Source of the DNA: Candidatus Woesearchaeota archaeon | Lineage (GTDB): Archaea > Nanobdellota > Nanobdellia > SCGC-AAA011-G17 > GW2011-AR18 | Length of the DNA stretch: 64,000 bases | Direction: 5' to 3' | Assembly (NCBI GenBank): GCA_964430545.1 | Contig: CAYSFG010000024.1 | Span: 24,534-88,533 of the forward strand | Shown here: positions 883-61,191 of the stretch, piece by piece | How positions within the stretch are numbered: the stretch's first letter is position 1 | How the letters are laid out: each line of letters opens with the position of its first letter | Made by a program: the position numbers and the translations under genes | Notes under the pieces: generated by a model | Seen by the model: the letters and a program-made list of their open reading frames with translations, nothing else | Told to the model about the DNA's origin: nothing | Databases searched by the model: none

Positions 883-2091
883 TCATAGATTTAAACTTTC
901 TTTTAATACTTGTTTTATAGTTAAAACATTTGTTTGTGGTATAGTTACTTTAATTTCCTTAGTTCTTCCATATCTTCCTTTGGATACTACCTTTGCATTT
1001 ATTATTCCTAACATATCTAATTCTACAATTATATCAGATATTCTTCTTTGAGTTAAATGTTTTAAACTTATTGATTTACAAAATTCTTTATAAACTTCAT
1101 ATACGTCTCCTGTAAATATTGGTTCATCTATTTTTTCTGATATGGTTAATATTGCTAATAATGCAAGTTGTGATTGTTTTGGTTGTGTTTTTGTTACTTC
1201 TAATATTTTATCTTTCTCAATTTTATCTTCAGCTTCATCTATATGTTCTAATTTTATTTCTATTTCTCCTTTTCTTTCTGCTAATTCACCTGCAACCCTT
1301 AATAATTCCAATGCTCTTCTTGCATCTCCATGTTCTCTCGCAGCATAAGCAGCACATTTTTCTATTACCCCTTCTTTTATTGTATTCTCTTTAAATGCAA
1401 TATTTGATCTTTGTCTTAATATATCTTGTATTTGTATTGCATTATATGGTGAAAAAACTAGTTCTTCTTCACTTAACGAACTTTTTACTCTAGGATCTAC
1501 ACCATCCATAAAAGATAAATCATTAGATATTCCAATTAATGATAATTCTACATTTTTTAGTTCTGAATTTATTCTTGTTAGATTATATAAAATTTCATCA
1601 CCTGCTTTTTTTACTAATTGATCAATTTCATCTAATATTAATATTACTAATTTTTTTTCTTCATCTATATGTTTTAAAAATATTTTATAAACTTCATCTG
1701 TTGGAAGACCAGTAGCAGGTATTTCCAAATCAAATTCTTTTGCTAATTGAACTATTAGTCTATATTCAGTATCTGCTACTCTTTTTAATTTACAATTAAT
1801 ATAAGCTATTTTTATAGGTAAATTTTTTTCCTTTGCAATTTTTATTATTTGTGAAGTTACATATTTTGTTACAACTGTTTTTCCTGTTCCAGTTATTCCA
1901 TATAAAAATAAATTTGATGGTTTTTCTAATCTTAACATAGGTGCTAAAATTCCAGCTATATAATTTATTTGTTCTTCCCTATGTATTATACTGCTAGGAG
2001 TATAATTTGATTGTAAAACTTTTTTATTTAAAAATAATGGTTCTTTGTTTAAATATCCTTGAAAAAATTCTGTTAATGAATCACCTTTCAT
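883..2091 (-). CDS. cdc6: Orc1/Cdc6 replication initiator
   Basis: Walker A GITGTGKT, Walker B ILDEID, GDARRAL sensor, C-terminal wHTH; GGGGTGA SD upstream. Confidence 0.97.
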   Translation of the reverse strand: MKGDSLTEFFQGYLNKEPLFLNKKVLQSNYTPSSIIHREEQINYIAGILAPMLRLEKPSNLFLYGITGTGKTVVTKYVTSQIIKIAKEKNLPIKIAYINCKLKRVADTEYRLIVQLAKEFDLEIPATGLPTDEVYKIFLKHIDEEKKLVILILDEIDQLVKKAGDEILYNLTRINSELKNVELSLIGISNDLSFMDGVDPRVKSSLSEEELVFSPYNAIQIQDILRQRSNIAFKENTIKEGVIEKCAAYAAREHGDARRALELLRVAGELAERKGEIEIKLEHIDEAEDKIEKDKILEVTKTQPKQSQLALLAILTISEKIDEPIFTGDVYEVYKEFCKSISLKHLTQRRISDIIVELDMLGIINAKVVSKGRYGRTKEIKVTIPQTNVLTIKQVLKESLNL

Positions 2092-2822: not shown

Positions 2823-3083
2823 ATGGATGAAGAAAAAAGATACTCAAAACAAATTGTAGGTAAAAAAGTTGTTTCAAAAACAGGTAAAGTTTTTGGTGAA
2901 GTTAGTAATATGATATTTGAAGTTCGTACAGGCGAAGTCTTACAACTTGTTCTAAGAAATACAACAGGTTATTGTGAAGGTTTAGATTTGGAAAGGACAA
3001 AACAAAATGAAGTTTTATTACCTTATACTGCTGTAGTTGCTTTGGGTGATTTTATTGTTGTAGCAGAAGAAGAAATAATTTAA
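2823..3083 (+). CDS. PRC-barrel domain protein
   Basis: IVGKKVVSKTGKVFGEVSNMIFE...VVALGDFIVV PRC-barrel pattern. Confidence 0.85.
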   Translation: MDEEKRYSKQIVGKKVVSKTGKVFGEVSNMIFEVRTGEVLQLVLRNTTGYCEGLDLERTKQNEVLLPYTAVVALGDFIVVAEEEII

Positions 3084-3194
3084 TTATGAAATTAACTAAA
3101 AGAATTTTTAACATTTCTTATGTAATAATTAAAGAACCAAAACATTCTAAGTTATATTCATAACCTTTTTATACTTTCTTTTATTCTTTATGAT

Positions 3195-5090
3195 ATGGTT
3201 GTTAAAAAATCTAATGAAGTTAAAGAATTAAATTTTAATAATACTTCAGAGATAAAAATTCCCAAAAATCTTTCAGAACAAATATTAGGTCAGGATCATG
3301 CAATAAATATTATTAAGAAAGCTTCTCAACAGCGACGTAATGTGTTATTAATAGGTGAACCTGGTACTGGAAAAAGTTTAATTGCTCAAGCTTTAGCAGA
3401 ATTATTACCCCCAACAAAATTAGTTGATATTTTATGTTTACCCAACGATCAAGATGAAAATAGTCCATTAATTAGGGTAATGCCTAAAGGTAAAGGTAAG
3501 GATCTTGTTACAAAACTTAAAATTCAAAATAATTCTATTTATAAAAACCAAAACATTATTTTTTTTATAGTTTTAATATTAACATTAATAACACCATGGT
3601 GGATTAGGAAACAATATGGTGATATTTTAGCAGCAGCTTCATTAATCGGTTCTATGATTTTTTTAGCTATCTTTGTAATTTTTATTAACTTAAATAGAAG
3701 AGTAAGTGTTAATAAAATAAAAATTCCTAAATTATTAGTAGATAATTCAGAACAAAAACTATCTCCATTTATTGATGCAACTGGTGCGCATACAGGTTCA
3801 CTGCTTGGTGATGTACTTCACGATCCACTCCAATCAGGAGGTCTAGGCACTCCAGCACATGAGCGTATAGTTTCAGGAATGTTGCACAAAGCTAATGGTG
3901 GTGTTTTATTTATAGACGAAGTTAGTTTATTAGATTACCATTCTCAACAAGAATTATTATCTGCCTTACAAGAAAAAAAATATAAAATTACAGGACAGTC
4001 AGAACGTTCTTCTGGTGCTATGGTTGCTACTGAACCAGTTCCTTGTGATTTTATTTTAGTTGCTGCTGGTAATCTTGAATCAATTGAAAAAATGCATCCA
4101 GCATTAAGATCTCGTGTTCGTGGTTATGGTTATGAAGTTTATATGAACGAAACTATGGATGATAATATTGAAAATAGAAATAAGCTAGCTCAATTTGTGG
4201 CACAAGAAGTTAATAAAGATAAAAAAATTCCTCATTTTACAAAAACTGCTGTTGATGAAATAATTAAAGAATCTCGTCGTATGGCTGGAATTGCAGGTAA
4301 GTTAACAGTAAGATTACGTGAGCTTGGTGGGCTTATTAGGGCTGCAGGCGATCTTGCTAGAGAAGATAATATTAAGATTGTTACTGAAGTTTATGTTAAA
4401 AAGGCTAAGTTATATGCTAGACCTCTTGAACAACAAATTGCTGATAAATATATTGAAAATAAGAAAAAGTATGAAGTTATTTTAACAGAAGGCAATAAAA
4501 TTGGTCGTGTAAATGGGTTAGCAGTTATTGGTTCAGGCGCCGCATTATCTGGACTTGTTCTTCCTATTGAATCTGAAGTTGTTCCGGGTGGCAACAAGGT
4601 AGAATTTGTAGCTACAGGAAAATTAGGAGAAATTGCTAAAGAGGCTGTTAAAAATGTTTCTGCTATAATTTTATCTATTTTTAAAGAGGACATAAAAAAG
4701 AAATATGATATTTATATACAATTCTTACAAACTTCTTCAAGTGGTGTTGAAGGAGATTCTGCATCTATTGCCGTTGCTACAGCAATTGTTTCTGCATTAA
4801 AAAAGGTTCCTATAAGACAAGATACTGCGATGACTGGTTCATTGTCTATTAGAGGAGATGTTCTTCCTATTGGGGGTATAACTGCTAAAGTAGAAGCAGC
4901 AATTTCAACAGGATTAAAACAAGTAATTATTCCTAGGTCTAACAAAGATGATTTAGTATTATCATCTGAACAACAAAAAAAAATTAAGATTATACCCGTA
5001 TCAAATATTATAGAGGTATTAGAACAGGCTATGTTGTGGGATGGTAAAGATGAGATATTAAAGAAAATTAAAAATTATAACCAAGAATAA
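3195..5090 (+). CDS. lonB: Archaeal membrane-anchored Lon protease LonB
   Basis: GEPGTGKS Walker A, two TM segments inserted in the ATPase domain, GDSAS catalytic Ser, PIGGITAK catalytic Lys. Confidence 0.96.
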
Positions 5091-9835: not shown

Positions 9836-9993
9836 GTTCACCTACTGTTCACCGAACCGTTCGGTGACGTCACCTACGTTTACCGAACCGTCCGATAACT
9901 ATCAATAAAATAGGTTATAACATGGTATAAACATAAATTATTTTTCCAATAAAAAAGGATTGTTCGGTAAGTTCACCGAACGGTTCGGTGAAC
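9836..9993. repeat. Phased palindromic GTTCACCGAAC-type array (candidate protein-binding sites)
   Basis: Six half-sites at 9836-9899 forming two roughly 32-bp units, plus three at 9961-9993 including perfect GTTCACCGAAC-G-GTTCGGTGAAC. Confidence 0.9.
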
Positions 9994-10041
9994 AATAAAA
10001 ATTAGTAAACTATAAGAATAAGTATTAATACAAAATAATTA

Positions 10042-10653
10042 ATGGGTGTATTCAGTTTTTTATTTAAAAAAAAGAGTGACGAAGAGCACATAGTAAGAAT
10101 TAATAATAGTTTAAAAGGTTCTTTCTCAAATATTAAAACAGATATGCTACATTTACATAAAACTATTTCTAATCATACAATTCACACTTCAAAAAAATTT
10201 CAGGAAATAGAAGAAAGTATCAAGCGTATGGAGTTAGTTTTAGCTACATTAAATTATCAATCTAAAAAACCATTTAAAGAACCATTAACTATTACACCTA
10301 TTAAAATAGAAGAAGAAATTGAAGAATCAGATCATAATGATATTTTAACAGTACTTAATGGTATACCTCACGCAGAACTTAAGTTATTTAAAACAATTTA
10401 CGATCTTCAACTAAACCTAAATACTAAACATATTTCTTACAAATCATTAGCAAGTTATTTATATCCTGGAAAAGATTATAATTCTATAAGATCCACAATT
10501 ACCCAATTTGTTTTAAGATTACATACTGAAGGGCTTATTGAAAAACAAAGGATAGGTAAGGAGACTTATGTTTGTACAAGTAATCACGGTAATAAAATAT
10601 TAAAAGATGTGAGAATTAAAAGAATAATAAAAGATATAACACTCAAAGATTAA
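10042..10653 (+). CDS. Coiled-coil / C-terminal winged-HTH protein
   Basis: IPHAELKLFKTIYDL...SYKSLASYLYPGKDYNSIRSTITQFVLRLHTEGLIEKQRIGKETYV; shares ELKLFxTIYxL with the 8730 protein. Confidence 0.8.
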   Translation: MGVFSFLFKKKSDEEHIVRINNSLKGSFSNIKTDMLHLHKTISNHTIHTSKKFQEIEESIKRMELVLATLNYQSKKPFKEPLTITPIKIEEEIEESDHNDILTVLNGIPHAELKLFKTIYDLQLNLNTKHISYKSLASYLYPGKDYNSIRSTITQFVLRLHTEGLIEKQRIGKETYVCTSNHGNKILKDVRIKRIIKDITLKD

Positions 10654-11227
10654 ATCTTTTATTTACAATTTCCCAATCTATATTTTCAAAAAAGATTTTA
10701 ATATAATCCGTTTTATTAGTTCCATAATCAAGCATAAAAGCATGTTCAAATACATCCATCACCAATAAAGGAATTCCTCCTGCTAAATGCCCTCCATCAT
10801 GTTCATTTATCCACACATTACATAATCTTTTTGATTCTTGATCTAAATATAATATAACCCACCCTATTCCCCTAATAGTGCCAGTTCCTTTAAAATCTTT
10901 TTCCCAATTTTCATAATTTTCAAAATCTTCCTCTATTTTTTTAAATATTTTTGTATTTTGATCTAACTTTTTCCCTTTTTTTGTTAAATTTTCAAAATAA
11001 TATTCATGTAATCTCATTCCATTAAATTCCCAACCAAATCTTCTTTTAAGTTCTGCAAATTCTGGTGTTGCTATTTTTCCTTCTTTTGTCATATTTTGTA
11101 AGATGTTTAATAATTTATTTATATTTGTTACATATCCATTGTATAATGCAAAATGTAGTTTTAATAGATTATCACTTAATCCATTTATTCCTAATAGATT
11201 TGAAAAATCTTTTGTTTTATATTCCAT
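10643..11227 (-). CDS. sod: Fe/Mn superoxide dismutase family protein
   Basis: LHFALYNGYV, FNGMRLHEYYF, DVFEHAF motifs. Confidence 0.92.
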   Translation of the reverse strand: MEYKTKDFSNLLGINGLSDNLLKLHFALYNGYVTNINKLLNILQNMTKEGKIATPEFAELKRRFGWEFNGMRLHEYYFENLTKKGKKLDQNTKIFKKIEEDFENYENWEKDFKGTGTIRGIGWVILYLDQESKRLCNVWINEHDGGHLAGGIPLLVMDVFEHAFMLDYGTNKTDYIKIFFENIDWEIVNKRFNL

Positions 11228-11323
11228 ATTAATATCACAACTTTGATTAGTTATAATTATTTATATCTGTTTCTATATAGTTTATATGATTAAACTATTT
11301 AATCATTAATTATAAATTTATTA

Positions 11324-11388
11324 CTTATCGTCGATAAGATAAATCATCGTCGGTAAATAGAAAACTATATAAATAAGCTCGTCGATAA
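11324..11388. promoter_or_regulatory. Operator-like TCGTCGRTAA repeats around a TATA box
   Basis: Copies at 11328, 11347 and 11379; palindrome CTTATCG-T-CGATAAG at 11324-11338; TATATAAA at 11366-11373. Confidence 0.65.
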
Positions 11389-11433
11389 GATAAAATATTA
11401 TATTAATTAATTAAAAAAAGGAGGTGAAAATAA

Positions 11434-11556
11434 ATGGGGAAAATAATAGTAAAAAATGCAATTCAACGTAAGAAAGGATTCTTATATTATGTTGATGGCC
11501 AGGGAAATGTCTGCGAAGCAGCTATGGCACGTGGGGGTAAAAAGAAGAGAAGATAA
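11434..11556 (+). CDS. 40-aa basic protein, single-module Cc1-like chromatin protein (below ORF-track cutoff)
   Basis: MGKIIVKNAIQRKKGFLYYVDGQGNVCEAAMARGGKKKRR; strong SD GGAGGTGA at 11420; R-x-x-G-aromatic-L-Y-Y-x-D/G motif typical of Cc1. Confidence 0.75.
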   Translation: MGKIIVKNAIQRKKGFLYYVDGQGNVCEAAMARGGKKKRR

Positions 11557-11802
11557 TTATATTTTAACTTCTTAGTTTTTTTCTTTATTTTTTCTTTTTA
11601 ATTTAATTAAACTAGTTAATAAAAAACAGGATATTATTTTCACATTCATTTTAGTTATCAAAAAGTTAATATTAGCTTAGCTAAAATTTTAGATAATACA
11701 AATAAGTAAATAATCTAAAATTAGCAAGAAATCATGTATTAAATAATTTTAATATTTAATTTAATAACCTTTTAAGAAGTTTATAATAGAAGGTAGATAC
11801 TT

Positions 11803-11940
11803 ATTACTCCAGAAAAATATAAAATTTCAGTAGATTCAATAGAAGATTCAATATTTTTAAAAAAGGGTACAGAAAGACAATAAGACTTACAAGATATAAA
11901 AATACTTAAAAAAATAAAGGAACACAAATATAAAAAATAA
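11803..11940 (+). pseudogene. Nucleotidyltransferase-like C-terminal remnant
   Basis: SIEDSIFLKKGTERQ*DLQDIKILKK with an in-frame TAA where the K of an RxKD-like motif is expected. Confidence 0.4.
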
Positions 11941-12332
11941 TTGTTTTTTAGAGATAGATAATATTTAAGAGATTGTTATAGGTTTGCTCATATGGGTGTT
12001 TTTCTTACGTTTAACAAAAAGGGGGAATTATTAAAATTTTTTCAGATGACATAAAAAACAAATTACAAGGAACAGGTACAATATTTCAGATAAATCATAT
12101 CTACCTAAATCATCAAAATAACTCAAAAGATTATCTTTAAAAATTAAACTATTTCATTAGCCTTTAAACAAATTTTACTATATATATCACTAAAAAGGGT
12201 ATTAATAATGTTATTCTATAATTGTAATGGGGCTTTCTGAAAATATTGTAATATTTTTTGTTTTTTCTTAATTGATTAGTGCATCTTTTTATTTTTTCTT
12301 TAGTTTTTTTTAGTTAAATAAGTAATGTTTTA

Positions 12333-12469
12333 CACTTAGGGATACAATTTATATTGTTAAAACCAAAGTTTAATTAATACTTAAAGATTTTGAGCAAATT
12401 TTATATAAATTTGTGCACTAAGGGAGCCCTAAGTTAATAAAAATAGTAAAATATATAACCCTAAGTGCA
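12333..12469. promoter_or_regulatory. res-like inverted half-sites upstream of the recombinase
   Basis: CACTTAGGG 12333-12341, GCACTAAGGG-AG-CCCTAAGT 12415-12434, CCCTAAGTGCA 12459-12469. Confidence 0.55.
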
Positions 12470-12477
12470 TAAACAAT

Positions 12478-13245
12478 ATGAAAAAGATGGTAAACAAACC
12501 CTTAGCAGCAATTTATATAAGAGTTTCAACTGAAGAACAAGCCTTGCACGGATTTTCTTTGGCTGGACAAGAAGATACACTAAAAAATTATTGTTCTGCT
12601 TTAGGATACGAATTATTAAAAGTTTATAGAGATGAAGGGAAATCTGCAAAAGATATTAAGAATAGGCCTGCAATGAACGAGCTTCTAAAAGATGCAGAGA
12701 GTAAGAAATTCTCAGCAATATTTATTTACAAATTAGATAGGTTTTCAAGAAGCTTAAAAGATTTAATCCTAACTATAGAAAAATTAAAAGAATGGGGAAT
12801 AGATTTTATTTCCTTACAAGATAGAGTAGAAACTGCTTCTGCTTCTGGGAAACTAATGTTTCATATAATCTCTGCTTTTGCAGAATTTGAAAGAAATATT
12901 ATAGGAGAAAGAACAATTTTTGGAATGGAAAGAAAATCAAAAGAGGGCGGAGCAATAACTAAAGCGCCATTTGGTTATAAAATGATAGAAAAAGCATTAA
13001 AAGTGGATCTTGAAAAAGCTATACAACTTAAACAGATATATGAAGATTTTTTGAATATGTCTATAAGCCTAAATAAGTTAGCAATAAAAAACAATTTAAG
13101 TGTTAATGGTCTTAAGAAAATATTAAAAAATAGGGCGTATTTAGGAGAAGTAAAATTTGCAGGAAAGAATACTAAAGGAATACATGAACCGATATTAACT
13201 GAGGAATTATTTGATAAAGTACAAGAAAAGATGAGAAATTTTTGA
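12478..13245 (+). CDS. Serine recombinase (resolvase catalytic domain plus short recombinase domain)
   Basis: AIYIRVSTEEQ catalytic Ser, DEGKSAK, YKLDRFSRS, EFERNIIGER, APFGY, ILKNRAYLG. Confidence 0.93.
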   Translation: MKKMVNKPLAAIYIRVSTEEQALHGFSLAGQEDTLKNYCSALGYELLKVYRDEGKSAKDIKNRPAMNELLKDAESKKFSAIFIYKLDRFSRSLKDLILTIEKLKEWGIDFISLQDRVETASASGKLMFHIISAFAEFERNIIGERTIFGMERKSKEGGAITKAPFGYKMIEKALKVDLEKAIQLKQIYEDFLNMSISLNKLAIKNNLSVNGLKKILKNRAYLGEVKFAGKNTKGIHEPILTEELFDKVQEKMRNF

Positions 13246-13334
13246 AATGAAACTAAATAATTTAATCTTTTATTAGAATATTGAATCTTACAATTTTCAT
13301 AAAATTTTCTAAAGCTTTTAAACAAATGTATTCA

Positions 13335-13439
13335 ATGACTTATAAATCAAGATCCAAAATTTATAACATTGGAAAAGCAGAATTAATTGAATTATATATT
13401 TATGAGAAAAAAGCAACTAGAAAAATTTCTAAGAATTGA
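13335..13439 (+). pseudogene. Degenerate HTH-like fragment
   Basis: MTYKSRSKIYNIGKAELIELYIYEKKATRKISKN*, followed by interrupted sequence. Confidence 0.3.
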
Positions 13440-13535
13440 AGATTTCCAAGATGGCAATAGATATATTTAATTAAATTTAGATAAAGAAAAGAGTCAGAAG
13501 AATGCATTATAAAATTGAGAAAACAAATCCGAATA

Positions 13536-13604
13536 AATAAAGATTTTATTTTTTGATTAAAAGTTGTACACTATTAAAAATAAAGATTTTATTTTTTGAT
13601 TAAA
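13536..13604 (+). repeat. 26-bp direct repeat, two copies
   Basis: AATAAAGATTTTATTTTTTGATTAAA at 13536 and 13579. Confidence 0.85.
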
Positions 13605-13980
13605 TATTATAATTATATAAACTAATCAAATATTATGATAATAAATTAAAGATTATAATCAAAGAATTATTGCTAAATAAATTAAATTTTAATATCAAAG
13701 ATTAAATTATTTAAGCATTAACTTAATACTAAAATAGCCATAACTTATAACTAAAAACTAAATATTTTAATCCTAAATTACAACCTTAAATATATACTTC
13801 ATAATATATAATAAATAATATCATTAATAAAATACAAAATAGTTAACATACTTAATAAAATAGTAGTTATAAGATATATAATAAAAACTATAATTAAACT
13901 TTTAAAATTGATTTTAAAATTAAAAAGTGAGAGTTAATTTATTAAAAAGCTTTATTAAAAATAAAAATATAATTTTTACT

Positions 13981-35775: not shown

Positions 35776-36048
35776 ATGGTAAAACAATTATTTAAAAAAA
35801 TGACGATAGGTCCTAAAGGGCAAGTTGTAATTCCAAAAATATTTAGGGATATAGAAAAAATAAGTCCGGGAACTGAGGTTTTATTAGAATTAAGAGAAGA
35901 AGGTATATTAATAAGTAAAAAGGAAGAAATTGATATTATTAAACTAATGAAGAAAATAGCTAAATCCATATCTAAAGATGATCAAATTAATTCAGATAAA
36001 GATTATGAGGAAATGTTGGGGGGGAGATGGAAAAAAAGTATTATATAG
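35776..36048 (+). CDS. AbrB/MazE/SpoVT-type antitoxin
   Basis: IGPKGQVVIPKIFRDIEKISPGTEV. Confidence 0.9.
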   Translation: MVKQLFKKMTIGPKGQVVIPKIFRDIEKISPGTEVLLELREEGILISKKEEIDIIKLMKKIAKSISKDDQINSDKDYEEMLGGRWKKSII

Positions 36049-36440
36049 ACTCTAATGTTTTTATATTTGCTTACTGTTATGATAATAAAGATGGTGATTA
36101 TTGTAGGAATATTATTAAAAAGATAATTAATAATGAAATACAAGCGTTCACTTCTAGTTTAACATTTGATGAATTATTTTACAAAACATTTAAGTTAAAG
36201 GATAGAAAAACAGCCTTATTAGTCGCTGATCTTTTTTTAAATTTAAAAAATATTAATTTTATATCAGTAGATTATAATATAATGTGTTTAACAAATTCTT
36301 TATTAATAAAACACAGTATCGGGCCAAGAGATGCAATACACTTAGCTTGTTGTTTGAATAATAAAATAAATATAATAATTTCAACTGATAAAGATTTTGA
36401 TGAAATAAAAGAGGTAAAAAGAATTAATCCCTTAGTATAA
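36027..36440 (+). CDS. vapC: PIN-domain VapC toxin
   Basis: YIDSNVF, TFDEL, PRDAIHLA, STDKDFD. Confidence 0.9.
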   Translation: MEKKYYIDSNVFIFAYCYDNKDGDYCRNIIKKIINNEIQAFTSSLTFDELFYKTFKLKDRKTALLVADLFLNLKNINFISVDYNIMCLTNSLLIKHSIGPRDAIHLACCLNNKINIIISTDKDFDEIKEVKRINPLV

Positions 36441-43468: not shown

Positions 43469-43555
43469 TAAGGGGGCACTTTAATTTCTATCAGTAGTTC
43501 ATAAATATTTTTTTCTCAAATTATATTTTATAATATATATTTTATAGTATCAAAT

Positions 43556-43582
43556 GCTCGTGCCAAAAAAGAGCTCGTGCCA
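43556..43582 (+). promoter_or_regulatory. GCTCGTGCCA direct repeats upstream of a TATA box
   Basis: Copies at 43556 and 43573; TTTATAAA at 43598. Confidence 0.5.
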
Positions 43583-43757
43583 CCTGCCCGCCTAAAGTTT
43601 ATAAAGCATTTAATTGATATATATTATACCTCATTGAAAAAGAAGCGAAAGCAAAACGAGGCCTTCCCTTTAGTGTTTATAGAAATTTATGGGAGTGGTT
43701 ATTTTAATTCTTTTTCTTTGAGTTTGAAAAAAATGGGAAACCAACGGAGGAAATAAA

Positions 43758-45282: not shown

Positions 45283-45711
45283 TTATTGTTTCGGTTCACA
45301 ATATCTTGATGCTTCATTTCCACTAGCATCTAAACTTCTAGTACATTTTTGTGTTTCTTCTTCCCACATTTCTGTAGTAATTGTTCCTAGTATTATTTTT
45401 GTACAGCTTTCATCTTCTGATTTCCATGTTTCTGTTTGTTGGTCTATTAACTTTGTGTGGCAAGCTTTACATTCAATTTTTCCATTATCTAATTTTATTT
45501 CTTCCACACCTAATATTTCTGATTTATACCCTCCAACATTAACTGTCGCTTTTTTACACCATGAACTTGCATATTCACTAGTTGTTTCTGTTTCAACTTC
45601 AATTTTTTGGTCTCCAGATCCATATTCTAATTTTGTTTTTTTTGTAGTACTTCCACAAGCAACTAATAAAAATAGAGAAAGTATTAATATTCCTATTATT
45701 ATTTTTTTCAT
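45283..45711 (-). CDS. Small Cys-rich lipoprotein-like protein
   Basis: LVAC lipobox; GGAGGT SD. Confidence 0.7.
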   Translation of the reverse strand: MKKIIIGILILSLFLLVACGSTTKKTKLEYGSGDQKIEVETETTSEYASSWCKKATVNVGGYKSEILGVEEIKLDNGKIECKACHTKLIDQQTETWKSEDESCTKIILGTITTEMWEEETQKCTRSLDASGNEASRYCEPKQ

Positions 45712-45763
45712 TTTTTTCCAACCTCCGTTATTAGATTATAATTATACAGGTATATAAAATTTA

Positions 45764-45822
45764 CTTCTCAGGGTTTGTTCAATCCTTCACACGTTCAGCT
45801 CAGAGTTGTTTCATCATCGAAG
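45764..45822 (-). ncRNA. Box C/D guide sRNA, D guide complementary to the 23S rRNA A-loop
   Basis: CTTCG-ATGATGA(C)-AACAACTCTGAG-CTGA(D')-ACGTGTGA(degenerate C')-AGGATTGAACAAACC-CTGA(D)-GAAG with CTTC/GAAG terminal stem; TATA about 25 nt upstream. Confidence 0.85.
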
Positions 45823-45855
45823 CAATTAAGCAAAATACTAAAACATTATAAATCT

Positions 45856-46404
45856 TTACAATGCTTTTTTAGTTAATCCTATTAAATAGCCAATTCCTCT
45901 TGTTATTAGGTGTATTATAAAATATAATATTAATAATATAAAAAAATCTTTTAGAGAAATTAAATATATTGGCATTATAAAAACTACAGCTCCTACTATC
46001 CAGTCTATTTGGTCGAATGGCATAAAGACGTCTCCAGGTTTTATTCCTGCTTGTCTTTTGAAAAAACTTTTTATTATATCACCAAATAATGCCCCGAATC
46101 CCATTAAAAAACCAACAATTATTGAGTAATTTGTTGAGTAATTTATTAAACTTAATTCTTTAAAATAATTATAATTTTTAAATAAATATTCTTGTATTAA
46201 TACAATTATTATCGCAAATATAATACCAAATATTAATCCTCTAAATGTTTTATGATCTCCAAGTATTCTTTTTTTAAATAATTGTTTTTTAAAATCTAAA
46301 GGATAGTTTAATTTTTTAAAATATTTTCTTATTAGAACAGGCGCCATGTTTGCTAATCCTGCAGGTAATAAAAAATATATTAATTGTAATAAGTAAAATG
46401 ACAT
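45856..46404 (-). CDS. carS: CDP-archaeol synthase (DUF46)
   Basis: ANMAPV, LGDHKTFRG, GDIIKSFFKRQ, PFDQID. Confidence 0.9.
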   Translation of the reverse strand: MSFYLLQLIYFLLPAGLANMAPVLIRKYFKKLNYPLDFKKQLFKKRILGDHKTFRGLIFGIIFAIIIVLIQEYLFKNYNYFKELSLINYSTNYSIIVGFLMGFGALFGDIIKSFFKRQAGIKPGDVFMPFDQIDWIVGAVVFIMPIYLISLKDFFILLILYFIIHLITRGIGYLIGLTKKAL

Positions 46405-57788: not shown

Positions 57789-57986
57789 ATGGCAACAACA
57801 ATACAAATATCAGATAATACAAAACAAATTTTAGAATCATTAAAAGAGAAAAAAAATATTAAGTCTTATGATCTACTTTTACAAAATATTTTAAAGAAAC
57901 ATACTAAGATGCCAGATTCTATGTTTGGTTCTCTTAAAGGAATGAAATGGAAAAAAGAGGATAGGGCTAATTTAGATGAGCTATGA
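57789..57986 (+). CDS. Putative antitoxin (RHH/VapB-like)
   Basis: MATTIQIS...SYDLLLQ...SMFGSLK; overlaps the PIN toxin. Confidence 0.85.
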   Translation: MATTIQISDNTKQILESLKEKKNIKSYDLLLQNILKKHTKMPDSMFGSLKGMKWKKEDRANLDEL

Positions 57987-58359
57987 ATTTATTTTAGATA
58001 GTTCTGTTTGGATAGAATATTTTATAGGGGATATTAAGATAGAAAAAATAAAAGAAGTAATAGAAGAAGGTAAAATTGCTACTTCAATATTAGCTATAGT
58101 AGAATTAGCAGATAAATTTAATCGTGATGGTAAAGATTTTGAAAGTTATTTAAATTTTATTAAAAGTCATGCAGTTATATTACCAATAACTATCTCAATT
58201 GCATTAGAATCTGCTAAGATTAAAAAGAAATTTCGTGTTAAAAATTCAAAATTTGGTATTGCAGACTCTATTCACCTAGCAACTGCACATTCAGAAAACA
58301 CTAAATTGCTCACTAAAGATTCAGATTTCTCAGATGCTGACAATGCTTATTTGATATAA
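57976..58359 (+). CDS. vapC: PIN-domain VapC toxin
   Basis: LDSSVWIEY, IVEL, IADSIHLATA, TKDSDF. Confidence 0.9.
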   Translation: MSYEFILDSSVWIEYFIGDIKIEKIKEVIEEGKIATSILAIVELADKFNRDGKDFESYLNFIKSHAVILPITISIALESAKIKKKFRVKNSKFGIADSIHLATAHSENTKLLTKDSDFSDADNAYLI

Positions 58360-59614: not shown

Positions 59615-59785
59615 TTAATCTTCTATTTTAGAATGTTCTTTTTTATATTTTAACCTATATTCTGCATATTTGTCTTCTAGACTAAACTTAGGAGGTTTCG
59701 TGTTTAATGTTTCTCTCCCACATTTGCATTTTTTTTCCATAGAATAGTTTCCACATTTTCCGCATTTTAAAATTAAATCAACCAT
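59615..59785 (-). CDS. nop10: H/ACA RNP protein Nop10 (below ORF-track cutoff)
   Basis: MVDLILKCGKCGNYSMEKKCKCG...PPKFSLEDKYAEYR; canonical position between aIF2alpha and PAC2. Confidence 0.92.
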   Translation of the reverse strand: MVDLILKCGKCGNYSMEKKCKCGRETLNTKPPKFSLEDKYAEYRLKYKKEHSKIED

Positions 59786-60548
59786 TTTTTATGAATTCTG
59801 CTTCGCAATTATTTTTATTAGCATATTCTAATATCTTTTCTAATTCTTTTAATTTATTTTCTGCATTTTTATAATCAAATGCTTTTGATATTATTTTATA
59901 TTTTGGTGCGCCTAAATAAGAAACTTCTAATCCCTTCCCTTTTATTTTTAATAATATTTCTTTGATTAATTCTATACCATTTCCAAGATAGCTTTTAATT
60001 GTCAATGTTCCACTTATGCTTAATTCTATCGGTTTTATTTTTTCTTGTATAGTTTTTACCAAGGCTTCAGTTAAATTATAATTATTTGTTAGTTTGGTGA
60101 CTGGTGTTTTTCCACTTTCTACTATTGCCTGAAAAAAATTATATAAACTTCCATAGTTTTCTATTGCTTTATTTGCTACTTCAAAATACATTGTTTTTAA
60201 ATCTAATTTTAGTTCTTTACCTATTTGTTCTAGTAATTTTTCAGCTTTTTCTTCTTGTTTGTAGTCATTTAATTTTGTAGCCATCACTCCCATTCCTACC
60301 CTTCTTAGCGATAGGTCTATATTTCCTTGTGAATTTATACTTATTACTTTACAAATTATTCTTTTACCTTCTATTACATAATCTCTTAGATTTCTTATTC
60401 TTCCTGGTGCTATTTCTGATATATGTACCATGCCTTCAACTATTGCATATTCATCCAAACTTACAAAAACTGAATGTGGTAATATTCTTTTTACAGTACA
60501 AATTACAACTTCTCCAATTTCTGGTTTGCCTTTCTTCTTATAGAACAT
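59778..60548 (-). CDS. eif2a: Translation initiation factor 2 alpha
   Basis: S1 domain GMVHISEIAPG, IDLSLRRV, YLGAPKY. Confidence 0.95.
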   Translation of the reverse strand: MFYKKKGKPEIGEVVICTVKRILPHSVFVSLDEYAIVEGMVHISEIAPGRIRNLRDYVIEGKRIICKVISINSQGNIDLSLRRVGMGVMATKLNDYKQEEKAEKLLEQIGKELKLDLKTMYFEVANKAIENYGSLYNFFQAIVESGKTPVTKLTNNYNLTEALVKTIQEKIKPIELSISGTLTIKSYLGNGIELIKEILLKIKGKGLEVSYLGAPKYKIISKAFDYKNAENKLKELEKILEYANKNNCEAEFIKNG

Positions 60549-60688: not shown

Positions 60689-60874
60689 TTATATTAATTT
60701 TTCTAAAACCTTACCGCGAAATATTGCTCTTCCGCCTGTAGGTTCTGCCATTAATTCTCCACATACTAAACAATTTACTTTACTACTTACTGCATTGAAT
60801 ATGTTCTGCTCATTCTTGCATTTATTACATCTTACTTTTACAAAATTTGTTTTTGTTTCTTTTAGTTTTTTCAT
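60689..60874 (-). CDS. rps27e: Ribosomal protein S27e
   Basis: FVKVRCNKC...CLVCG...PTGGRA. Confidence 0.95.
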   Translation of the reverse strand: MKKLKETKTNFVKVRCNKCKNEQNIFNAVSSKVNCLVCGELMAEPTGGRAIFRGKVLEKLI

Positions 60875-60876
60875 TT

Positions 60877-61191
60877 TTATACAAATTCTACTTTTTTAGC
60901 TCTATATCCTGAGCTTTGTTGTGTTGCTTTTTTACATATATTACAAGTATATCTCAATGTTGTTTTTTTACTTGCTTTTGCCCCAGTTCTCTTGAATTTT
61001 GAGATTGCAGGTTTTGATCCCCATTTACCTTTATTACCAGCTCCTCTTCCTTGCCCTCTTTTTTTAGCTCTTGCGATTGAGCCACGGCTTAGTGATCCTC
61101 TTTTTCCAGCACTTTTATATTGGTCTATTTTCTGATCTGTTGATTTATTACAATGAGGACAATATCTTTTTATGATCTTTGGTAATTTCAT
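60877..61191 (-). CDS. rpl44e: Ribosomal protein L44e
   Basis: MKLPK...YCPHC...KTTLRYTCNICKK. Confidence 0.95.
   Translation of the reverse strand: MKLPKIIKRYCPHCNKSTDQKIDQYKSAGKRGSLSRGSIARAKKRGQGRGAGNKGKWGSKPAISKFKRTGAKASKKTTLRYTCNICKKATQQSSGYRAKKVEFV

Follow-up and report, generated by a model that had tools for sequence, protein, structure and literature searches.

A candidate box C/D guide RNA for the 23S rRNA A-loop in a low-GC Woesearchaeota-type genome

Methylation of U2552 guided by small RNAs is already known in archaea, and it has been predicted even for the DPANN archaeon Nanoarchaeum equitans. Dennis et al. (2015, PMC4644070) surveyed seven archaea and predicted sRNA guides for U2552 in five of them. 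Four sRNAs (NeqsR10, MKAsR17, Sac-sR7 and IHOsR33) are assigned in the supplement of that study to alignment position U2826, which is U2552 in E. coli. The same supplement gives the archaeal form of helix 92, the hairpin that carries the A-loop, as GGGGC-UGUUC-GCCCA in M. maripaludis and GGGGU-UGUUC-GCCCA in M. kandleri, while N. equitans has a variant that is rich in GC (PMC4644070). According to the study, the A-loop predictions for Sulfolobus acidocaldarius match positions established by earlier MALDI-MS and primer-extension experiments (PMC4644070).

Within DPANN, the searchable literature describes C/D sRNAs only for the hyperthermophile Nanoarchaeum equitans. Such RNAs are seldom annotated in metagenome-assembled DPANN genomes. 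Here an element is described from a 64-kb window, the whole stretch of DNA that was analysed, which is almost certainly a functional-looking archaeal box C/D sRNA gene, judged by its sequence features. One of its two guides appears to be directed at the A-loop. Since sRNA-guided methylation of U2552 is known from other archaea, this is a sound but ordinary find, and the mechanism that it would use is not new.

The window carries a range of archaeal markers (radA, CarS, aS21, EF-1beta, L44e, S27e, eIF2alpha and Nop10), and the named relatives of its CarS protein belong to 'Candidatus Woesearchaeota' or 'Nanoarchaeia'. The same DNA is found in two public metagenome runs (ERR4904393 and ERR3478687) at 12-17x, and their reads show no strain variants at the sRNA locus. 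The window contains no tRNA genes by ARAGORN and no Rfam family at its gathering score, and no RNA genes were found in the 3-kb Logan contig pieces that extend it.

The element lies between the gene for CDP-archaeol synthase (CarS; 45856-46404, minus strand) and a 142-aa lipoprotein-like ORF (45283-45711, minus strand), with radA slightly beyond. It is free of overlapping ORFs of 40 aa or longer. Its GC content is 44%, against 30% for the surrounding 144-nt intergenic gap and about 25% for the window, and few other GC islands lie outside the ORFs.

Other GC-rich intergenic patches occur elsewhere in the window, for instance at 43538-43620, where GCTCGTGCCA is repeated. Another island, at 9843-9997 (up to 58% GC), lies upstream of an ORF at 10042-10653 that has no Pfam match. 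A 21-nt palindrome, GTTCACCGAACCGTTCGGTGA, occurs there three times, at 9847, 9878 and 9971, and these repeats look like putative sites for a dimeric DNA-binding protein. A very AT-rich non-coding gap of 731 nt (2092-2822) adjoins cdc6/orc1 (883-2091, minus strand). It is flanked by 39-nt inverted repeats (2106-2144 and 2786-2824) and contains one GGGGGT...GCAGTGGAAAC motif (2429-2449), which we take to resemble archaeal origin-recognition boxes. This gap may be a replication origin, although only a single box-like copy of this kind was found.

Read on the minus strand from 45825 to 45761, the sRNA element is 5'-UUGCUUC G AUGAUGA AACAACUCUGAG CUGA ACGU GUGAAGG AUUGAACAAACC CUGA GAAGUAA-3'. Its core runs from 45822 to 45764, so that the predicted RNA is 59 to 65 nt long depending on how much of the extended stem is counted (Table 1). 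Archaeal box C/D sRNAs are recognized by a C box of the form RUGAUGA, a D box CUGA and a short terminal stem, together with internal D' and C' boxes, a short loop and symmetric spacers of about 12 nt. All of these are present here, and both spacers are exactly 12 nt. The terminal stem has 7 bp and is recovered both by folding the single sequence and by a consensus fold of two sequences.

Table 1. Predicted features of the sRNA gene and its upstream region (window coordinates).
Feature	Positions	Strand	Basis or remark
Whole predicted box C/D sRNA	45761-45825 (core 45764-45822)	minus	Boxes, spacers, stem and alignment with relative L125
5' strand of terminal stem, UUGCUUC	45825-45819	minus	Paired with 45761-45767 in minimum-free-energy and consensus folds
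Unpaired G	45818	minus	Between stem and C box
C box, AUGAUGA	45817-45811	minus	Perfect RUGAUGA; invariant in L125
D' guide, AACAACUCUGAG	45810-45799	minus	Positions 2-12 as in L125; position 1 differs
D' box, CUGA	45798-45795	minus	Perfect
D'-C' loop, ACGU	45794-45791	minus	4 nt; 3 nt in L125
Degenerate C' box, GUGAAGG	45790-45784	minus	5 of 7 matches to RUGAUGA, 5' UGA kept; invariant in L125
D guide, AUUGAACAAACC	45783-45772	minus	Positions 2-12 as in L125; position 1 is C here, A in L125
D box, CUGA	45771-45768	minus	Perfect
3' strand of terminal stem, GAAGUAA	45767-45761	minus	Followed by a U-rich tract
Promoter-like AAAGA-TTTATAAT (BRE/TATA-like)	45845-45857	minus	TATA start 35 nt upstream of C box

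A preliminary description of this DNA had placed C, D', degenerate C' and D boxes and a terminal stem at 45764-45822 and had called the element a box C/D sRNA. All of the parts are there, on the minus strand, and the class is borne out by the architecture, by its uniqueness in the window, by conservation in a relative and by sub-threshold Rfam matches. The 15-nt target proposed for the D guide held only in part. Its core, the complement GGUUUGUUCAAU, stands, while the extra CC(U) is complementary to the C' box and was dropped. Because the spacers are symmetric at 12 nt, the D guide is taken to be 12 nt long, with GGUUUGUUCAAU as its complement.

Short motifs of this kind can cluster by chance in AT-rich intergenic DNA, giving an element that is neither transcribed nor functional. 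RTGATGA and CTGA are indeed common in the window, with 25 and 350 copies, and no RNA-seq run contains the locus. Their arrangement is not common: the strict pattern C-12-D'-x-C'-12-D occurs once in the 64 kb, and not one of 300 first-order Markov shuffles reproduced it. A relaxed scan of the window (one C-box mismatch, free spacing, stem of 3 bp or longer) gave no other intergenic candidate.

The Rfam matches can be read on either side of this question. A permissive scan of 201 nt returned 27 sub-threshold matches. Of these, 26 are to C/D families and cover the element on its minus strand; archaeal sR3, sR7, sR2 and snoPyro_CD are among them. The best match, SNORD29 (RF00070), scores 33.4 bits (E=2.9e-5) where the gathering score is 48, so that the sRNA is not a member of that family. 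For sR3 the score is 18.4 against a gathering score of 41, and the archaeal sR families (RF01133 and others) stay below threshold as well. With every score under its gathering threshold, a point in favour of a chance cluster, the sRNA shows the general form of the class and falls outside every curated Rfam family.

Conservation was assessed in one close relative, ENA scaffold L125, which shares the gene order and encodes a CarS with 74% identity. A copy of the sRNA, cttcaATGATGAAACAACTCTGAACTGAACTGTGAAGGATTGAACAAACACTGAgaag, lies there at 10668-10725, again between the CarS and lipoprotein genes. The two copies are identical at 55 of 58 positions (95%) with one gap, whereas the flanks match at 23 of 47 positions (49%) upstream and 35 of 52 (67%) downstream. 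Thus, in the one relative compared, boxes and guides are conserved above background.

The few differences fall at tolerant positions. Of the three substitutions, one affects the unpaired base between stem and C box, and the other two affect position 1 of the D' guide and of the D guide. In box C/D sRNAs guide position 1, beside box D or D', need not pair. The single-base deletion falls in the D'-C' loop, and a G.U pair of the terminal stem becomes A-U. Two aligned sequences give no two-sided covariation, so the structure of the sRNA is not statistically proven.

The preliminary description had also given the sRNA its own TATA element, and TTTATAAT was found at 45852-45845. Its counterpart in the relative, AAAGG-TTTAATAG, likewise stands 35 nt upstream of the C box, and the consensus of the two genomes is AAAG(A/G)TTTA(T/A). 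The intergenic region of the relative is about 113 nt longer, which moves the CarS stop codon that much further off but leaves the TATA spacing unchanged. Because the spacing is kept despite the longer gap, the sRNA is probably transcribed from a TATA promoter of its own, with a start predicted near 45822. Together with the shuffles and the pattern of conservation, a promoter-like element at fixed spacing makes a chance cluster very unlikely.

A second alternative is that the functional part is a hairpin on the plus strand, AGGGUU-UGUUC-AAUCCU, which would terminate transcription or bind a protein, with the C/D boxes incidental. Pairing is slightly better on that strand, where a G.U stands in place of the A.C on the minus strand. 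There is, however, no plus-strand gene end nearby, radA ending about 600 nt upstream with a gene on the opposite strand in between, and no terminator-like site was called. The relative loses the outer pair of the hairpin and keeps every box element, and the folding energy of the whole RNA is unremarkable (z = -0.66). This alternative is the least credible of those considered, and the box C/D sRNA remains the preferred reading.

Copies were also sought further afield. In five more distant Woesearchaeota CarS loci (L126, L127 and L138-L140) there is neither a copy of the sRNA nor a GAACA-N4-CTGA guide. A search with the 142-aa lipoprotein-like protein for further syntenic copies returned only the query itself. 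The best CarS match in JGI data is 52% identical, and the lineage seems to be absent from those data.

The surroundings of radA are a mobile-DNA hotspot in this lineage. In L125 a three-gene insertion (11389-13657: a 195-aa ORF, AbiEii and a LAGLIDADG endonuclease) separates the lipoprotein gene from radA, and in L139 (11535-13715) radA contains an intein, which includes a LAGLIDADG domain. The LAGLIDADG protein of L125 has no relatives in the PDB, and no link between it and 23S introns of DPANN archaea was found in the literature. In the window, a serine recombinase/resolvase gene (12478-13245) sits in a region (11228-13980) whose unusually long flanks of 1250 and 735 nt have no called ORFs and which includes a GC-rich patch at 11472-11562; this region may represent a mobile element that has integrated or is decaying. 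Two toxin-antitoxin-like pairs occur at 35776-36440 and 57789-58359, namely a MazE/AbrB-type antitoxin with a PIN nuclease and a 65-aa ORF with a PIN nuclease.

Complementarity to the D guide AUUGAACAAACC gives a predicted target of 5'-GGUUUGUUCAAU-3'. Its fifth base upstream of box D, A45776, would pair with the third U of this target, which is the first U of UGUUC. The target can itself fold, with a GGUU/AAUC stem (U-A, U-A, G.U and G-C; 4-5 bp) around a UGUUC loop. Compared with the archaeal helix 92, the stem changes are compensatory: 2551-2557 goes from C-G to U-A, 2550-2558 from G-C to U-A, and 2549-2559 from G-C to G.U. The predicted target thus looks as a helix 92 that has drifted towards AT should look. 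Among 127,972 window positions, only four 14-mers have UGUUC in this register closed by four pairs (3e-5).

The guide also has the form of known A-loop guides, in which the complement of the pentaloop is followed by exactly 4 nt and then box D or D'. Here the register is GAACA-AACC-CUGA; the published ones are GAACA-CCCU-CUGA, GAACA-ACCG-CUGA, GGGCA-GCCA-CUGA and GGGCA-GCCC-CUGA. The target had earlier been read as the hairpin closing the UGUUC A-loop, with the fifth-nucleotide rule falling on the first U. The arithmetic is correct, and both the helix 92 shape and the register of the four published U2552 guides agree with that reading. Given that the element is a C/D sRNA, its D guide quite likely directs 2'-O-methylation of the U2552 equivalent in the A-loop, a target inferred from guide shape and precedent.

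A 23S rRNA with the predicted helix was sought in several collections. JGI metagenome contigs were scanned for GGTTTGTTCRRT followed 14-18 nt on by GAGCTGGGTT, that is, for the predicted helix 92 and the universal GAGCUGGGUU anchor. No archaeal 23S rRNA with this helix was found in that scan, whose single match (L123) is a eukaryote-like LSU rRNA reading GUUGGUUUGUUCAAUCAUUAAUAGGGAAUGUGAGCUGGGUU. In this real LSU rRNA, of eukaryotic type, GGUUUGUUCAAU does serve as helix 92.

Other scans gave less. Scanning genome contigs with the 14-mer GGTTTGTTCAATCC yielded 120 unrelated, mostly bacterial loci, none of them in rRNA, as is random at that length. A protein search with hypothetical translations of the A-loop region returned 20 candidates, all with an ordinary GC-rich helix 92, and the contigs fetched were bacterial. 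In viral contigs a general 23S-type pattern led to three non-archaeal loci (L135-L137) and two patterns for the predicted variant to nothing. Reads of the runs cover one of these, the bacterial 23S fragment L135 (IMG/VR), at a total 23S depth of about 4,400-10,000x against 12-17x for the archaeon, which is under the 1% reporting floor. The window and the related loci hold no rRNA or tRNA.

The eukaryote-like contig found in the JGI scan (Ga0115012_10298073, 1-1212) is AT-rich. Downstream of an LSU 3' end (Rfam model positions 2923-3401), whose helix 92 is UGGUUUGUUCAAUCA, it carries an internal SSU fragment (1118-1666) in the same orientation. This unusual arrangement points to rRNA genes that are fragmented or rearranged.

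The D guide of a genuine C/D sRNA could also be directed at a site outside helix 92, such as a tRNA T-arm or a variable segment of 16S or 23S rRNA. Apart from the lack of a JGI archaeal 23S rRNA with the predicted helix, three observations fit such a target: GUUCAAUCC matches the T-loop consensus GUUCRANNC, T-loop-like 9-mers (2.3e-5 in the window) match helix-92-like hairpins in rarity, and E. coli 16S rRNA has GGUUUGUU in a variable helix. On the T-arm option the guide would cover G53-UUCAAUC-C61 with a T-stem GUUUG and would methylate position 52. To our knowledge, that position is not a site of 2'-O-methylation in tRNA, and a T-arm would not account for the pairing of the target's 5' part with its 3' part. 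Moreover, none of the target's 7-mers occurs elsewhere in seven archaeal 16S and 23S sequences. The helix 92 reading, on the other hand, puts the methyl group at the most conserved ribose methylation of the LSU, in the register of four published guides. A target outside helix 92 is accordingly an improbable one, and the A-loop is preferred.

The target of the D' guide is more ambiguous. The guide AACAACUCUGAG, whose position 1 is A in the relative, predicts (C/U)UCAGAGUUGUU, with methylation at the G opposite C45803 in xUCAG*AGUUGUU. The 23S rRNA of M. maripaludis has two copies of the core CAGAGUUGU(U), one corresponding to E. coli 2452-2460 and the other to about 740. The first candidate, GGGGAUAACAGAGUUGUCGCGG at 2452-2460, has G2454 at the fifth position, near the peptidyl-transferase core; at this site guide positions 1 and 2 would be mismatched with A2450 and A2451, which are universally conserved. 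MKAsR17, whose second target lies at E. coli 2459, provides a precedent for it. The second candidate is GCAGAGUUGUUGCC, in variable domain II around E. coli 740, a region dense in predicted methylation sites. Because the conserved A at position 2 of the D' guide should pair, the domain II candidate or a third site is favoured over G2454. Another site in 23S rRNA is the most likely target.

An sRNA of this kind would depend on partner proteins. Neither fibrillarin, Nop5 and L7Ae nor RlmE/FtsJ is found among about 50 scanned ORFs of the 64-kb window by Pfam scan or precomputed Pfam assignments. The preliminary description proposed that this reduced genome keeps RNA-guided methylation at the A-loop site; that it does so instead of using RlmE is a hypothesis. 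One study that includes Woesearchaeota scores the completeness of archaeal genomes by 38 single-copy genes, a set to which fibrillarin (COG1889) and Nop5 (COG1498) belong. The window does encode Nop10, in a 56-aa ORF (59615-59785, minus strand; PF04135, 62.8 bits). At least the sister H/ACA guide-RNA system, which shares L7Ae, should therefore be present.

Nop10 completes a conserved archaeal cluster with L44e (60877-61191), S27e (60689-60874) and eIF2alpha (59778-60548). Part of the H/ACA pseudouridylation RNP is thus present, and a TruD gene begins just beyond 63270.

By analogy with other archaeal C/D sRNAs, the following mechanism may be proposed. The C/D and C'/D' motifs would form a k-turn and a k-loop and be bound by L7Ae, after which Nop5 and fibrillarin would assemble. 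The 12-nt D guide would pair with nascent 23S rRNA at the equivalent of E. coli 2548-2559, that is, with helix 92 before it folds. Fibrillarin would then methylate the 2'-OH opposite the fifth guide base upstream of box D, at the U2552 equivalent. The D' guide would direct a second methylation to the G in UCAG*AGUUGUU, which is most likely the equivalent of G2454 or a site in the domain II hotspot around 740.

Taken as a whole, the reading of this element as a dual-guide box C/D sRNA of a low-GC DPANN (Woesearchaeota/Nanoarchaeia-like) archaeon, serving the A-loop and a second 23S site, is probable. A bolder version is doubtful. In it, one sRNA clamps both strands of the peptidyl-transferase centre (the G2454 region by D', U2552 in helix 92 by D) as part of a minimal retained guide set, acting as a folding chaperone and also as sole source of the methyl group in the A-loop, in a small genome of very low GC without RlmE/FtsJ. 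If that were true, this lineage would offer a natural minimal case for asking which ribose methylations of archaeal rRNA are indispensable.

Even on the plainer reading, a conserved A-loop guide in a mesophile-like Woesearchaeota-type genome of about 25% GC would mean that guided U2552 methylation is kept with a probably tiny sRNA repertoire, to judge from one candidate in 64 kb. The D guide apparently tracks the AT drift of helix 92.

Several known systems lead to the same or a neighbouring modification. RlmE/FtsJ in bacteria and MRM2 in mitochondria yield the same chemical product at the same nucleotide; unlike the sRNA, they are stand-alone enzymes that recognize the assembled subunit and use no guide RNA. 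Yeast snR52 and human SNORD29 are C/D guides for ribose methylation in or beside the A-loop, snR52 presumably guiding Um2921 of 25S rRNA with Spb1 as a back-up. These are eukaryotic snoRNAs, however, which are longer and work with Nop56, Nop58 and Snu13.

The archaeal guides are closer. Sac-sR7 of Sulfolobus acidocaldarius (GUGGGCAGCCA|CUGA; ..GGGCAGCCA|CUGA) directs U2552 methylation by its D guide, as the window sRNA would, and IHOsR33 of Ignicoccus hospitalis (AGUGGGCAGCCC|CUGA; ..GGGCAGCCC|CUGA) has the same spacing to box D or D'. Both come from Crenarchaeota, in which the A-loop is UGCCC and the guide core GGGCA. MKAsR17 of Methanopyrus kandleri carries a U2552 guide (AGCGAACAACCG|CUGA; ..GAACAACCG|CUGA) and a second guide for a site about 95 nt upstream, the E. 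coli 2459 equivalent, and so resembles one candidate pair of the window sRNA, G2454 with U2552. It differs in using D' for U2552, in belonging to a hyperthermophile with about 127 sRNAs, and in a second target that lies 5 nt from the uncertain candidate here.

The nearest counterpart is NeqsR10 of Nanoarchaeum equitans, likewise a dual-guide sRNA of a DPANN archaeon and about 58 nt long. Its U2552 guide (AGUGAACACCCU|CUGA; ..GAACACCCU|CUGA) has the same register of GAACA, 4 nt and CUGA. It is the D' guide that serves U2552 in NeqsR10, the D guide being for the C2606 equivalent, whereas the window sRNA uses its D guide for the A-loop. The stem part of the guide is GUGAACACCCU in NeqsR10 and AUUGAACAAACC here, which fits a GC-rich and an AT-drifted helix 92, respectively, and sequence homology between the two RNAs is confined to the boxes. 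The sRNA described here thus adds a further data point to a known picture and leaves that picture as it was.
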